Assembly: GCF_056712565.1 (NCBI RefSeq)
Contig: NZ_CM160072.1
Direction: 5' to 3' (one strand)
Length of the DNA: 64,000 nucleotides
Below are positions 48,234-51,872 of this stretch, one piece after another. Position 1 is the first letter of the stretch, and every line of letters starts with the position of its first letter. The position numbers and the translations under genes are program-made. The notes under the pieces are model-generated. The model saw only the letters and a list, made by a program, of their open reading frames with translations. It did not search any database and was not told where the DNA came from.

Positions 48234-48445
48234 GCCGGACAAGGCGTTTACGCCGCATCCGGCCGTTGGCGCACAATGCCTGATGCGACGCTGACGCGTC
48301 TTATCATGCCTACAAGTCTGTGCCGAACCGTAGGCCGGATAAGGCGTTCACGCCGCATCCGGCAGCTGGCGCACAATGCCTGATGCGACGCTTGACGCGT
48401 CTTATCATGCCTACAGGTCTGTGCCGATCCGTAGGCCACATCCGG
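48234..48445. repeat. BIME/REP cluster with a tandemly duplicated ~100-bp unit
   Basis: Two near-identical units, each TAGGCCGGA(C/T)AAGGCGTT(T/C)ACGCCGCATCCGGC...GCGCACAATGCCTGATGCGACGCT...CTTATCATGCCTACA, then a third REP-like palindrome. Confidence 0.75.
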
Positions 48446-48449
48446 CATG

Positions 48450-49313
48450 TCACAAATATAGCGCCGGAAATATTAACCGGCTCACCCCGCGCTCCCGTAA
48501 CGCATCAGCCAGTTGTTCCACATCCTCCGGCGTGGCGCTCGGCCAGCTTTGCGCCTCGCCATACACGCCGTGGGCATGAAACGCGTTCAGGCGTACCGGA
48601 ACATCGCCAAGTCCCTTGATTAACGCCGCCAGTTCTTCGATATGTTGCAAATAATCCACCTGGCCAGGGATTACCAGCAAACGCAGTTCCGCCAGCTTAC
48701 CGCGCTCTGCCAGCAAACAGATGCTGCGCTTGATCTGCTGATTATCGCGTCCGGTTAATTGCTGATGACATTCGCTCCCCCACGCTTTGAGATCGAGCAT
48801 TGCGCCGTCACACACCGGGAGCAATTTTTCCCAGCCGGTTTCGCTCAACATGCCGTTACTGTCCACGAGGCAGGTGAGATGGCACAGTTGCGGATCGTTT
48901 TTGATGGCAGTAAACAGCGCCACCACAAACGGCAACTGGGTCGTGGCTTCGCCGCCGCTTACCGTTATCCCTTCAATAAACAGAACCGCTTTGCGGACAT
49001 GGTTAAGCACCTCGTCCACGCTCATGGATTGCGCCATTGGCGTAGCATGTTGCGGACACATCTTCAGGCAGGTATCACATTGCTCGCAGACAGCCGCGCT
49101 CCACGCCACTTTGCCGTCGACAATCTGCAACGCCTGATGCGGACACTGCGGCACGCACTCTCCGCAATCATTACAGCGCCCCATCGTCCACGGATTGTGA
49201 CAGTTTTTGCAGCGCAGATTGCAGCCCTGCAAAAACAGAGCCAGACGACTGCCTGGCCCGTCAACGCAGGAGAAGGGGATAATCTTACTGACTAAAGCGC
49301 ATCTGCTGTTCAT
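48450..49313 (-). CDS. yjjW: Glycyl-radical enzyme activating enzyme (radical SAM) YjjW
   Basis: 287-aa ORF with cysteine-rich N-terminal region and ferredoxin-like Cys clusters; 29-nt overlap with yjjI. Confidence 0.9.
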
Positions 49314-50835
49314 GGCTTATCACGCGCGGCTGGCGTTCCAGAATACGAGTGTTGCGTGCGGCTTCTTCTCCCAGCCAGGTGGTGTTGGTGCGTGAACCTT
49401 CGGCGCGATATTTTTCTAAATCCGACAAACGCACCATATAACCGGTAACGCGAACCAGATCGTTACCGCTGACATTGGCGGTAAATTCACGCATTCCAGC
49501 TTTAAAGGCACCGAGGCAAAGCTGTACCAGCGCCTGCGGATTACGTTTGATGGTTTCGTCGAGCGTCAGAATGTCGCTGATGCCGGAATAATAATAAGCA
49601 TGATGCGGGGCGACAGTTTGCAGATGGGTAATCGGATCTGGCTCATCACCATACGGCAAACGCGCGCCCGGCGTGGTGCCGATATCGGAACTTATCCCCG
49701 ACTGTGCGTGTAACATGGCGCGTTTTTGCCAGCCATATTTCACGGGGGTATTGGCGACAAACTCCGCCAGTTGCGCGCTAATGCGATAACCCACTTCATT
49801 TGCGGCGGCCTCTTTACCGTAGCGTGCGGCAATCCCTTCTTTTTCACACAGCAAGTTAACCGCTTCCGCCAGCCCATACATGCCAAACATCGGCACAAAA
49901 CGTTCAGGGTTAATCAGCCCTTCTTTCACCAGGAAGCTATTCTCAAAGAAGTGTGATTGTTGATAGAGGAATTCACACCGCGCATCGATGATGGCGATCT
50001 GCTGTTGGCAGTAGTGCGGTAGAGTGCGCGTAAAGAAGTCCTCCAGCGATTCACTGCGCTCGGCAATGGCTTTCAGGTTTAGGCGTACCAGCGTGCTGCC
50101 ACCACCCGCCAGCGGCAGTGAGTTGTAACAGCTCACAATCCCGTAGCCCCCTTTTGTGAAAATTTTATCATGCACCGGACCGTTGGCGATGTGCGGTTTG
50201 CTACATTCACAGATGTTTTTCGCCACTTCCAGCAGCAGGTCATCAGGGGTGATATCAGGATCGTAGATAAAGGTCAGGTTCGGTGAAACCTGCTTCAGCT
50301 CTGCGTCTGCACGTAATATCGCACGGGTAATGGGCGAATCAGACGGGCCGATATTGGCATGCATAAAGGCGTCTGGCAGGGTTCTGTCGAGGTAACGCCA
50401 GAAACGTTTTATTCGAATATCGATCTCGTCTTGTGTTAGAATTCTAACATACGGTTGCAACAACGCATCCAGTTGCCCCAGGTAGACCGGCATCGATGTG
50501 ACCGACGGTACATGGTGGTAAAGAATGGTCAGCAGAGAGAGTGCGTCATCAAGGTCTTTCGCGCCTTCCAGCTCCAGCCATTCGGAACCGTTGGCCAAAA
50601 AACGGGCGTAATCGGGTAAGACATAGCGCGGTTTGTACGGCGCATGACCTTCAAACATATCGCAGATTACCCCCTCATCCAGCGCGCGGCGGGCTTCGGC
50701 AGGCAGCTGTGGGTAAGGCAGATTGTTTTCTGCTTCCAGTGCCAGAAAATGGCGCTTCTGCTCCGGGCTAAGTACCGGGCTGGTGACAATTTGCTGGCAA
50801 CGTTGTTGCAGTGCATTTTCATGAGAAGTGGGCAT
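49285..50835 (-). CDS. yjjI: Glycyl-radical-enzyme-like protein YjjI (DUF3029)
   Basis: 516-aa ORF; synteny upstream of its activase yjjW and divergent from deoC. Confidence 0.9.
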
Positions 50836-51032
50836 CTTCTTTTCCTTTTATGCCGAAGGTGATGCGCCATTGTAAGAAGTTTCGTGATGTTCACTTTGAT
50901 CCTGATGCGTTTGCCACCACTGACGCATTCATTTGAAAGTGAATTATTTGAACCAGATCGCATTACAGTGATGCAAACTTGTAAGTAGATTTCCTTAATT
51001 GTGATGTACATCGAAGTGTGTTGCGGAGTAGA

Positions 51033-51048
51033 TGTTAGAATACTAACA
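51033..51048. promoter_or_regulatory. DeoR operator in the deo promoter region
   Basis: TGTTAGAATACTAACA, a 16-bp palindrome matching the DeoR operator consensus TGTTAGAA-TTCTAACA, ~45 nt upstream of the deoC start. Confidence 0.7.
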
Positions 51049-51092
51049 AACTCGCAAGGTGAATTTTATTGGCGACAAGCCAGGAGAATGAA

Positions 51093-51872
51093 ATGACTGA
51101 TCTGAAAGCAAGCAGCCTGCGTGCACTGAAATTGATGGACCTGACCACCCTGAATGACGACGACACCGATGAGAAAGTGATCGCCCTGTGTCATCAGGCC
51201 AAAACTCCGGTCGGCAATACCGCCGCTATCTGTATCTATCCTCGCTTTATCCCGATTGCTCGCAAAACGCTGAAAGAGCAGGGCACCCCGGAAATCCGTA
51301 TCGCTACGGTAACTAACTTCCCACACGGTAACGACGACATCGAAATCGCGCTGGCAGAAACCCGTGCGGCAATCGCCTACGGTGCCGATGAAGTTGACGT
51401 GGTGTTCCCGTACCGCGCGCTGATGGCGGGTAACGAGCAGGTTGGTTTTGACCTGGTGAAAGCCTGTAAAGAGGCTTGCGCTGCGGCGAACGTACTGCTG
51501 AAAGTGATTATTGAAACCGGCGAACTGAAAGACGAAGCGCTGATCCGTAAAGCGTCTGAAATCTCCATCAAAGCGGGTGCTGACTTCATCAAAACCTCTA
51601 CCGGTAAAGTGGCTGTGAATGCGACGCCGGAAAGCGCGCGCATCATGATGGAAGTGATCCGCGATATGGGCGTAGAAAAAATCGTTGGTTTCAAACCGGC
51701 GGGCGGCGTGCGTACTGCGGAAGATGCGCAGAAATATCTCGCCATTGCAGATGAACTGTTCGGTGCTGACTGGGCTGATGCGCGTCACTACCGCTTTGGT
51801 GCTTCCAGCTTGCTGGCAAGCCTGCTGAAAGCTCTGGGCCACGGCGACGGTAAGAGCGCCAGCAGCTACTAA
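51093..51872 (+). CDS. deoC: Deoxyribose-phosphate aldolase
   Basis: ORF 51069..51872; start set at [26 protein letters not shown] (259 aa). Confidence 0.95.

Follow-up and report, generated by a model that had tools for sequence, protein, structure and literature searches.

The gene pair that reads away from the deo operon in the window analyzed here (the whole 64,000-nucleotide stretch from NCBI RefSeq assembly GCF_056712565.1, contig NZ_CM160072.1) is E. coli yjjI-yjjW, an already-known orphan pair. It almost certainly encodes an oxygen-sensitive glycyl-radical enzyme, YjjI, together with its radical-SAM activase, YjjW, and the pair probably has a role in nucleoside-sugar catabolism. As the best explanation of the whole, we somewhat favor a reading in which an FNR-activated radical system acts on the pentose of nucleosides and feeds the DeoC aldolase.

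The yjjI-yjjW gene pair and its predicted radical residues

The original prediction described two overlapping open reading frames divergent from deoC, and the coordinates agree with this description (Table 1): yjjI and yjjW read in the direction leading away from deoC, whose ATG lies at 51094 on the plus strand, and the overlap between them is suggestive of translational coupling. YjjI scores 787.8 bits against TIGR04040 (curated cut-off 498.3), with the profile matched over positions 1-497 of 497, and 732.5 bits against the Pfam family PF11230, while YjjW scores 398.8 bits against TIGR04041 (curated cut-off 250.2). Because these scores far exceed the cut-offs, yjjI and yjjW are real genes and not chance reading frames. 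Over 3 kb the locus matches E. coli B2 strains at 100% identity, and of 5426 complete E. coli genomes, 5422 contain it at a coverage of at least 80%. The order yjjI then yjjW is kept as a pair in 134 of 136 loci, with the two genes overlapping in 101 and lying within 30 nt of each other in 26; synonymous-site identity in the overlap region is 0.93.

Table 1. Positions in the window of the genes, coding motifs and regulatory sites of the yjjI-yjjW locus
Feature	Position	Strand	Basis
yjjI CDS, YjjI-family glycyl radical enzyme, 516 aa	49285..50835	-	ORF; TIGR04040; PF11230
yjjW CDS, radical-SAM activase of YjjI, 287 aa	48450..49313	-	ORF; TIGR04041; Radical_SAM and Fer4 domains; PflA likeness
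29-nt overlap, yjjI stop / yjjW start	49285..49313	-	ORF positions
Glycyl radical loop codons R462-V-T-G465-Y466	49438..49452	-	translation; homolog alignment; PflB alignment
Cys finger loop codons S235-C236-Y237-N238, predicted thiyl radical carrier	50122..50133	-	translation; homolog alignment; PflB alignment
Invariant R70-Y71 codons, opposite the reducing Cys175 of NrdD	50623..50628	-	hhalign against E. coli NrdD; residue check
YjjW C31-x3-C35-x2-C38, radical-SAM [4Fe-4S] motif, CNLRCKNC	49200..49223	-	translation; alignment
YjjW ferredoxin-like insert, two CX2CX2CX3C motifs (C47/50/53/57, C76/79/82/86)	49056..49175	-	Fer4 domains; motif alignment
Candidate FNR site, yjjI strand, CGCATCAGGATCAA	50896..50909	-	7/10 consensus positions; putative assignment
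Alternative FNR-like site = deoP2 CRP-2 site (50947-50962)	50948..50961	.	7/10 consensus positions
CRP-1 site of deoP2, shared intergenic region, TGTGATGTACATCGAA	51000..51015	.	agrees with ETEC CRP ChIP-seq site
DeoR operator O2 at deoP2, 16-bp palindrome TGTTAGAATACTAACA	51033..51048	.	exact palindrome
DeoR operator O1 / deoP1, yjjI codons 129-134, 599 bp from O2, TGTTAGAATTCTAACA	50434..50449	.	sequence match
DeoR operator OE, inside yjjI, 279 bp from O1, TGTGAAAATTTTATCA	50155..50170	.	sequence match

The chemistry of the pair had been described as not established, and this description still holds: both NCBIfam models are labeled 'hypoth_equivalog', and the literature searched, including under the names DUF3029, HI0521 and b4380, yielded no published functional study or reaction for YjjI/YjjW and no biochemical, genetic or metabolomic data on YjjI. 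To our knowledge, and in the literature searched, YjjI is the last E. coli glycyl-radical enzyme without an assigned reaction.

Several features of the glycyl radical enzyme superfamily are present: an RVxG[FWY] glycine loop, a finger-loop cysteine, and an adjacent activase gene. The radical glycine and cysteine are conserved across the 164 YjjI homologs, Gly465 in 162 of the 162 that cover the position, and Ser235, Cys236 and Asn238 each in all 164. Near the C-terminus, the RVTGY loop aligns with that of PflB so that G465 matches G734 (IRVSG734Y), and S235-C236 aligns with PflB C418-C419, C236 being the counterpart of C419. Besides Gly465 and Cys236, about 15 further residues are invariant. 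R70-Y71 is kept in 162 of 162 homologs; R70 and Y71, together with R251 and R392, may lie in the active site.

The activase is equally well marked by its motifs, with C31/C35/C38 (CX3CX2C), G120-G121-E122 (GGE) and D18-G19-P20-G21-x-R23 (DGPGxR) invariant in 19 diverse YjjW sequences. Its closest solved relative is PflA (E 5e-18). Against TIGR02494, which describes the PFLE_PFLC subfamily, YjjW reaches 131.8 bits, below the cut-off of 174.35; YjjW is a family separate from PFLE_PFLC, though the two-cluster ferredoxin insert is common to both. The prediction of a glycyl-radical-like protein with an activase is thus supported by conserved residues in both proteins, and the alignment with PflB that was suggested as a check does show the radical loop.

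Anaerobic control, deo regulatory DNA and gene neighborhoods

Anaerobic expression of yjjI, on which the original prediction also depended, is documented in published work: ChIP and FNR-dependent expression place yjjI in category 1 of the direct FNR targets (PMC3688515), it is listed among the FNR-activated genes (PMC2634741), and in Yersinia intermedia anaerobic conditions induce it 4.3-fold (PMC3792023). The published FNR ChIP peak corresponds to position ∼50928 in the window (1977-bp coordinate offset), and the two FNR candidates in Table 1, each agreeing with TTGAT-N4-ATCAA at only 7 of 10 positions, are equally far from it. The one on the yjjI strand has a TACAAT -10 hexamer (50874-50869) 28.5 nt downstream, a spacing that would be class II-like, and its half-site is kept in several genera. 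A generic scan for sigma-70 promoters and terminators close to the yjjI start returned nothing, as expected for a promoter that depends on an activator.

The pair was predicted to share a 230-bp deo regulatory region. The sharing stands, but the yjjI-deoC intergenic gap measures 258 bp (50836-51093) and the regulatory DNA is not confined to it: the deo control region extends 681 nt into the yjjI CDS, including O1, OE and promoter P1. The DeoR operator placed by the prediction in the gap, O2, proved to be an exact palindrome. O1 is kept at a CDS offset of +368 to +386 in all 14 enterobacterial loci scanned, with a third-position identity of 1.00 against a yjjI CDS mean of 0.55; for OE this value is 0.97, among the top two windows of the CDS. 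O1 and OE are the most conserved synonymous sites of yjjI, and the nesting of O1, OE and P1 in this gene makes a clean case of regulatory DNA selected at the synonymous sites of a neighbor. The E. coli yjjI promoter would be situated between O1 and O2, and a CRP site assigned to yjjI/deoC by ChIP-seq in ETEC matches CRP-1 (PMC4287617). Since O1, OE and the convergent deoP1 lie within the yjjI CDS, DeoR and deo transcription probably modulate expression of this gene.

Comparison of gene neighborhoods strongly reinforces the predicted link to nucleoside or deoxyribose metabolism. When YjjI sequences are grouped by single linkage at 60%, 9 lineages are informative, and in 8 of them nucleoside or sugar genes lie within 7 kb; several other loci were on contigs too short to show their neighbors. 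Across Enterobacteriaceae, Hafnia and Edwardsiella, deoCABD is divergent from yjjI, with a NupC-type transporter downstream in several, while Gilliamella has a co-directional cluster of deoD, a nucleoside symporter (nupG-like), add, 5'-nucleotidase, cdd, deoA, yjjI and yjjW. Lachnospiraceae-type contigs carry PNP, Bmp, YjjI, YjjW, an ABC transporter, DeoC (299 bits, cut-off 117), Add and DeoB (565 bits, cut-off 256); other contigs carry ribokinase (331 bits, cut-off 300), YjjI, YjjW and a nucleoside hydrolase. Two further loci combine the pair with RihC-like, PfkB, DeoD and Bmp (L090: RihC-like, PfkB, DeoD, YjjI, YjjW, Bmp) or with Add and PfkB (L093: Add, PfkB, YjjW, YjjI), and in Shewanella the acetaldehyde dehydrogenase ExaC is immediately upstream of yjjI-yjjW. 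In five loci YjjIW separates the Bmp binding protein from the genes of its ABC transporter, and tightly packed co-directional nucleoside operons with YjjIW recur at a YjjI identity of only 31-45%. A genomic-context module of 2009 had already linked yjjI-yjjW to nucleoside metabolism (PMC2672614). No nucleoside genes were found near yjjI in Vibrionaceae, Morganellaceae, Rhodobacterales or one archaeal contig; the context is a LysR regulator and a chemoreceptor in Vibrionaceae, an Iso_dh-family dehydrogenase, a histidine kinase and a dimethylglycine-oxidase-like protein in Rhodobacterales, and an MFS-GDPD operon at locus L086.

Predicted fold of YjjI and its departures from NrdD

YjjI is predicted to form a compact ten-stranded alpha/beta barrel, with the class III ribonucleotide reductase NrdD as its closest fold. 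NrdD accounts for all 20 best Foldseek matches of the AF2 model (pLDDT 91.5, pTM 0.91). The hhalign probability is 89% for NrdD and 73% for PflB. Precomputed PF13597 (NRDD) matches exist on many YjjI homologs, and E. coli YjjI itself has no ATP-cone or NrdD match at threshold in Pfam or NCBIfam. Searching PDB sequences with the YjjI sequence alone gave nothing meaningful; only the profile and fold searches were informative.

Within this similarity, YjjI differs from NrdD in several features. The hhalign alignment places YjjI R70-Y71-V-L-P-D opposite NrdD N174-C175-M-L-I-D, so that the NrdD reducing cysteine (C175 in E. coli, C79 in T4) is replaced by the invariant Tyr71. The Zn(Cys)4 site of NrdD (C644, C647, C662, C665) is absent from YjjI, whose last cysteine is C440 and which has no CxxC. 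NrdD Met382, the thiosulfuranyl partner two residues before the catalytic cysteine, has Val or Ala as its counterpart at YjjI position 234, a correspondence made by eye since the cysteine loops are not in register in the hhalign alignment. YjjI also lacks the ATP-cone and the N-terminal 120 residues (the hhalign match begins at NrdD residue 120), is 516 aa long against 712 for NrdD, and has a PflA-type activase with a two-cluster ferredoxin insert where NrdD has an NrdG-type one. C58 was considered as a second catalytic cysteine of YjjI and rejected: although present in 155 of 164 homologs, it gives way to His, Tyr or Asp in deep branches, and its partner in the alignment with NrdD is a His of the IHYHD motif, not C175.

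Proposed reaction and alternatives

In the mechanism that we propose, yjjI and yjjW form an operon, activated by FNR, that encodes a glycyl-radical enzyme and its activase. YjjW, the radical-SAM activase with three predicted [4Fe-4S] sites, would cleave S-adenosylmethionine and take a hydrogen from Gly465; by analogy with the mechanism of glycyl-radical enzymes, the Gly465 radical would then generate a thiyl radical on Cys236, which would abstract a hydrogen from the substrate. Gene context points to a pentose moiety from anaerobic nucleoside catabolism as this substrate, with a ribose phosphate such as ribose-5-phosphate as its likeliest form, and suggests a reaction resembling the first half-reaction of ribonucleotide reductase, in which hydrogen would be abstracted beside the 2-OH and the 2-OH then lost. 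The product would enter the DeoC aldolase route, directly or once reduced by a separate enzyme, and yield acetaldehyde and triose phosphate. Judged separately, and on gene context together with the absent residues, ribose phosphate as the substrate is a tentative assignment and specific 2-deoxygenation a doubtful one. The fully specified version, a 'ribose-phosphate 2-deoxygenase' applying ribonucleotide reductase chemistry to free ribose-5-phosphate, ribose-1-P or ribose-1,5-bisphosphate, with DeoC then splitting the ribose of ribonucleosides anaerobically into acetaldehyde and a C3 phosphate, strikes us as rather unlikely. The pentose phosphate pathway already provides a redox-neutral route for ribose-5-phosphate, so the physiological need for a YjjI route is itself in doubt.

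Single-cysteine radical chemistry of the kind proposed for YjjI is found in the B12-independent diol dehydratases and glycyl-radical eliminases (glycerol/propanediol dehydratase, CutC, IslA, HypD), in which hydrogen is abstracted beside the leaving-group carbon and 1,2-elimination follows. Unlike YjjI, these enzymes are PFL-like, have ∼790-850 aa and contain a Cys-x-Glu catalytic dyad, and we know of none that acts on pentose phosphates. E. coli PflD and YbiW were reportedly assigned in 2024 as 1,5-anhydromannitol-6-P and 1,5-anhydroglucitol-6-P C-O lyases. They too belong to the PFL-like family (∼765-810 aa, PF02901/PF01228, Cys-x-Glu loop) and lie among PTS and hexitol genes, whereas YjjI has Cys-x-Asn, a Pfam family of its own and a nucleoside gene context.

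The nearest fold, NrdD, also allows YjjI to be a true reductase that fully reduces free ribose phosphate, or else a ribonucleoside, at the 2 position with formate or another donor, giving either the DeoC substrate or deoxyribose for salvage. The deoC gene divergent from yjjI or within its operon, the ribokinase upstream in some loci, the adjoining acetaldehyde dehydrogenase in Shewanella, and FNR induction alongside formate-producing fermentation would all suit such an enzyme; but an invariant tyrosine at the place of the reducing cysteine, the lack of any second invariant cysteine, and the Val or Ala at the position tentatively matched to Met382 make a full reductase unlikely. The same gene context could serve an enzyme acting on the non-sugar part of nucleosides, for example by radical C-N cleavage or anaerobic degradation of the nucleobase. 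However, the base-releasing neighbors (PNP, nucleoside hydrolase, thymidine phosphorylase, deaminases) vary by lineage and already supply glycosidic cleavage, while the common thread is formed by sugar-handling genes (ribokinase, DeoB, PGM/PMM, DeoC), and we regard this reading as quite improbable. It is distinctly unlikely that the deo and nucleoside adjacency is non-functional and that YjjI serves anaerobic metabolism by acting on some unrelated small molecule: the Vibrionaceae, Rhodobacterales and MFS-GDPD contexts would agree with such a role, but the recurrence of packed nucleoside operons among such divergent YjjI sequences, and the insertion of the pair between Bmp and its transporter genes, argue against it.

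That YjjI is a C-C lyase of the formate-lyase type, acting on pyruvate or 2-ketobutyrate, is very improbable. The Haemophilus influenzae homolog HI0521 carried the old annotation 'pflB homolog / formate acetyltransferase', and there are similarities: weak PFL profile similarity around the cysteine and glycine loops, the same fold in PflB, glycine loops reading IRVSGY in PflB and VRVTGY in YjjI, alignable cysteine loops (YAIACC and YGIVSC), PflA as the nearest relative of the YjjW core, and FNR control of both systems. Yet PFL requires the Cys418-Cys419 pair, for which YjjI has Ser235-Cys236; at 760 aa PFL is 240 residues longer than YjjI, whose structure is nearer to NrdD; PflA lacks the ferredoxin-like insert of YjjW; and E. 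coli YjjI matches neither PF02901 (PFL-like) nor PF01228 (Gly_radical) in Pfam, only PF11230. Similarly little probability attaches to a function in the metabolism of nitrate, nitrite or nitrogen. Such a role was predicted by cMonkey biclustering, in which yjjI shares its expression pattern with narG, among others, in both E. coli and Salmonella (PMC3228777), and listings that group it with anaerobic respiration genes would agree. A scan upstream of yjjI found no NarL/NarP 7-2-7 site, no lineage examined has conserved nitrogen-metabolism neighbors, and the co-expression with narG is accounted for by shared FNR control; we therefore rejected this reading.

An FNR-activated radical system acting on the nucleoside pentose thus remains the reading that we prefer, and it concerns a core E. 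coli gene that is FNR-induced and common in gut Clostridia. The evidence narrows the search for the substrate to a few pentose phosphates and nucleosides that can be bought, and the residue analysis yields precise control mutants (G465A, C236A and Y71F). If the 2-deoxygenase were real, YjjI would represent a minimal form without allosteric control, related to NrdD and perhaps similar to an ancestral reductase, and would provide a widespread, previously unknown fermentative route from ribonucleosides. If the deoxygenation is indeed like that of ribonucleotide reductase, it would open a new anaerobic path for the carbon of nucleosides in gut bacteria, and the evolution of ribonucleotide reductases would gain a new branch point.

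Locus, gene identity and radical machinery

The yjjI and yjjW genes lie on the minus strand, encode proteins of 516 and 287 residues from reading frames that overlap by 29 nt, and are transcribed away from deoC, which starts on the opposite strand, all in accord with the original prediction. The predicted DeoR operator (O2) is indeed a palindrome at its expected position, while the yjjI-deoC gap, put at 230 bp, measures 258 bp. The 3-kb locus matches E. coli phylogroup-B2 chromosomes (annotated there yjjV / yjjW / yjjI / deoC) at 100% identity. Among 5426 complete E. coli genomes, 5422 carry it at ≥80% coverage, and K-12 has the same gene layout. YjjI scores 787.8 bits against TIGR04040 (cut-off 498.3) and 732 bits against PF11230, and YjjW scores 398.8 bits against TIGR04041 (cut-off 250.2); the pair is a conserved orphan glycyl-radical system that was annotated before this analysis.

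The convergent yjjV-yjjW gap holds two tandem copies of a ~100-bp REP/BIME-like unit; since this gap is 216 bp in the window and 419 bp in K-12, the copy number of the unit differs among strains. One 574-aa database entry (P0004), from a 2.9-kb E. coli-like contig, joins PF11230 to a DeoC domain; this fusion probably results from a gene-calling or assembly error spanning the divergent yjjI and deoC.

Coordinates of the genes and of the regulatory features at the locus
Feature	Position	Strand	Sequence	Remarks
yjjW	48450-49313	-
yjjI	49285-50835	-
deoC ATG	51094	+
yjjV-yjjW gap	48234-48449
Sigma-54 motif	49228-49244	-	CTGGCTCTGTTTTTGCA	exact match; yjjW codons ~24-29
OE	50155-50170		TGTGAAAATTTTATCA	weaker palindrome within yjjI; 279 bp beyond O1, 878 bp from O2
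O1	50434-50449		TGTTAGAATTCTAACA	perfect DeoR palindrome within yjjI codons 129-134; 599 bp from O2
CRP-like site	50497-50512		TGTGACCGACGGTACA	within yjjI; ~55 bp downstream of O1
TACAAT hexamer	50874-50869	-
FNR-like candidate 1	50896-50909	-		centre 28.5 nt upstream of TACAAT
FNR ChIP peak	~50928			93 bp upstream of yjjI ATG
FNR-like candidate 2	50948-50961			coincides with deoP2 CRP-2 site
O2	51033-51048		TGTTAGAATACTAACA	DeoR operator at deoP2

The assignment of YjjI as a glycyl-radical enzyme is borne out by its conserved radical residues: Gly465 (in R-V-T-G-Y) and Cys236 (in S-C-Y-N) show no variation in 22 homologues (33-90% identity) or, again, in 164 genome and metagenome sequences. 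About 15 further residues are invariant, including E62, R70, Y71, D150, H159, N186, R251, E305, H376, Q378, D384 and R392. A family-profile search of PDB sequences matches YGIVS235C236 to YAIAC418C419 of PflB, and VRVTG465Y to IRVSG734Y, and hhalign with E. coli PflB does likewise.

In YjjW, the radical-SAM motif C31-x3-C35-x2-C38, the SAM motif G120-G121-E122, the N-terminal loop D18-G19-P20-G21-x-R23 and two ferredoxin-type CX2CX2CX3C motifs (C47-C57 and C76-C86) are all invariant among 19 diverse sequences; a DGPGxR-type N-terminal loop is typical of activators of glycyl-radical enzymes. The nearest solved relative is PflA (E 5e-18), which YjjW matches in two blocks, interrupted by its ferredoxin-like insert. 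The order yjjI to yjjW is kept in 134 of 136 loci, with the genes overlapping or ≤30 nt apart in 127 of those 134. Motifs, TIGR04041 score and pairing thus all agree with the predicted radical-SAM activase.

Fold and superfamily position of YjjI

The AlphaFold2 model of YjjI, built from the 22-sequence alignment, is a confident one, with a pLDDT of 91.5 and a pTM of 0.91, and the best 20 Foldseek matches are all NrdD structures (E 7e-17 to 2e-14). Comparison by hhalign gives a probability of 89% (E 2e-6) with E. coli NrdD and 73% (E 3e-5) with PflB, and many YjjI homologues carry precomputed matches to PF13597 (NRDD). However, where NrdD has its reducing cysteine (N174-C175), hhalign places the invariant R70-Y71 of YjjI, and a second invariant Cys is absent among the 164 aligned homologues. 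The Zn(Cys)4 site of NrdD (C644, C647, C662, C665) is missing, because the last Cys of YjjI is C440, and so is the ATP-cone region, because the hhalign match begins at NrdD residue 120. Judged by its sequence, YjjI lacks the features that define NrdD as a reductase. The Cys-Cys pair found in PFL is missing as well. With an NrdD-like fold, no reductase features and no such pair, YjjI therefore forms a separate, compact (~500 aa) branch of the superfamily, with a single Cys as in eliminases. YjjI belongs to a small family of 539 clusters (50% identity, E ≤1e-3), of which many are fragments, with some two dozen deep lineages represented by full-length proteins. Its members range over Enterobacterales, Orbales, Vibrionales, Shewanella, Rhodobacterales, Lachnospiraceae/Eubacteriales and at least one archaeon.

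Anaerobic expression and the deo control region

Published data document anaerobic expression: yjjI is a category-1 operon, bound and activated by FNR (PMC3688515), it is among the FNR-activated genes of a further study (PMC2634741), and in Yersinia intermedia without oxygen yjjI rises 4.3-fold and yjjW 2.1-fold (PMC3792023). We converted the FNR ChIP peak with the 1977-bp shift between U00096.2 and U00096.3, verified on a published sigma-54 site located in the window. The peak is flanked by two FNR-like candidate sites that each agree with the consensus at 7 of 10 positions, and the first, together with the TACAAT hexamer, has a predicted class II geometry.

The deo regulatory region is shared, as first proposed, but its extent was underestimated: the control region is larger and reaches into yjjI. 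By their spacings, the two palindromes inside yjjI correspond to O1 (at promoter P1) and OE as described in classical work on the deo operon. Over 18 enterobacterial genera, the mean identity at third codon positions of yjjI is 0.55, and its top two 6-codon windows coincide exactly with O1 and OE (1.00 and 0.97); just 0.4% and 0.1% of 16-nt windows reach that conservation. The yjjI promoter would lie within the O1-O2 DeoR loop, its transcription would have to cross O1 and OE, and transcription from the convergent deoP1 would run through the initial 386 nt of yjjI and through that promoter. Expression of yjjI is thus likely to be coupled to DeoR and deoxynucleosides.

Two further sites lie within the pair. 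The motif CTGGCTCTGTTTTTGCA, reported as intragenic sigma-54 ChIP site IS57 (enrichment 17; PMC4591121), overlaps codons of the conserved RLALFLQGC segment of YjjW, and TGTGACCGACGGTACA matches a CRP ChIP-seq peak reported inside yjjI of ETEC H10407 (PMC4287617).

Gene neighbourhoods and proposed chemistry

The chief new evidence comes from gene neighbourhoods. We clustered the neighbour ORFs of YjjI in 80 genome loci and 93 metagenome loci (the latter fetched with an alignment of distant members only, or by exact look-up) and named recurring neighbours with Pfam and NCBIfam. Enterobacteriaceae, Hafnia and Edwardsiella have a divergent deoCABD, with a NupC-type transporter downstream in several genera. 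Gilliamella has a co-directional series of deoD, nucleoside:H+ symporter, adenosine deaminase, 5'-nucleotidase, cytidine deaminase and deoA, with yjjI-yjjW last. On Lachnospiraceae-type contigs, where YjjI shares ~38-45% identity with its E. coli counterpart, the operon reads PNP, Bmp, YjjI, YjjW, ABC ATPase, two permeases, DeoC (299 bits, cut-off 117), adenosine deaminase and DeoB (565, cut-off 256), with Cdd additionally in one locus. Other arrangements are YjjI, YjjW, Bmp, ABC transporter, PGM/PMM mutase; YjjI, YjjW, NupC, PNP; ribokinase (331, cut-off 300), YjjI, YjjW and, further on, nucleoside hydrolase; RihC-like, ADP-ribosylglycohydrolase-like, PfkB, DeoD, YjjI, YjjW, MFS, Bmp; and adenosine deaminase, PfkB, YjjW, YjjI. 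In two Shewanella loci (L050, 6245-7798, and L051), an acetaldehyde dehydrogenase gene (ExaC model, 961, cut-off 900) immediately precedes yjjI-yjjW in the same orientation.

With lineages defined as 60% single-linkage clusters of YjjI, 8 of the 9 that were informative have nucleoside-catabolic genes ≤7 kb away, for the most part in the orientation of yjjI, which backs the link to nucleoside or deoxyribose metabolism hinted at originally. Exceptions to this pattern are Vibrionaceae, Morganellaceae, Rhodobacterales and an archaeal contig. As early as 2009, a genomic-context network had YjjI in its 'deoxyribonucleoside degradation' module (PMC2672614); the link thus predates this analysis, which gives it much stronger support. 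Base-releasing enzymes vary by lineage, whereas sugar-handling genes (ribokinase, DeoB or PGM/PMM, DeoC) are common throughout; this difference points to a pentose, probably as its phosphate, as the YjjI substrate.

Several neighbourhoods have features of their own. A LysR-type regulator is a conserved neighbour in Vibrionaceae and Shewanella. Archaeal-looking contigs (L082-L084), bearing the archaeal translation genes eIF-1A, NMD3 and RIO1, encode a YjjI homologue of 40% identity (8001-9599 in L082) beside a short, 247-aa activase without the ferredoxin-like insert, and nucleoside genes are absent around it. In Clostridia-type metagenome loci (L136, L139, L142, L140 and L145, ~4.0-4.8 kb; L148 and L162), genes for DNA-glycosylase-like proteins, AlkD-like (PF08713) or HhH-GPD (PF00730), share operons with YjjI-YjjW and nucleoside hydrolases, hinting that these proteins may target free or modified nucleosides, not DNA.

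What chemistry might such a system perform? With the identities of enzyme and activase, the radical residues, the fold, the missing reductase apparatus and the operon contexts established here, we hypothesize an RNR-like half-reaction on ribose phosphate. From established glycyl-radical enzymology, YjjW would generate the Gly465 radical, which would pass to Cys236, and the Cys236 thiyl radical would take a hydrogen from the substrate. Context and the single-Cys NrdD-like architecture suggest that YjjI would carry out the first half-reaction of RNR, in which a hydrogen is abstracted and the neighbouring 2-OH is then lost, and that its product may enter the DeoC route directly or once reduced by a separate enzyme.

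Rivals to this half-reaction remain: YjjI could be a full reductase variant, could act on a nucleoside or base, or could act on an unrelated substrate. Two older readings are poorly supported. A PFL-type enzyme would be expected to carry Cys-Cys, but the YjjI loop is Ser-Cys. The placement in 'nitrogen metabolism' draws on co-expression of yjjI with nar genes, but FNR control accounts for that co-expression, and our search of the upstream region for a NarL/NarP site found none. A proposed role of YjjI-YjjW in handling the nucleoside sugar anaerobically is now supported well enough for direct testing on a short list of substrates.
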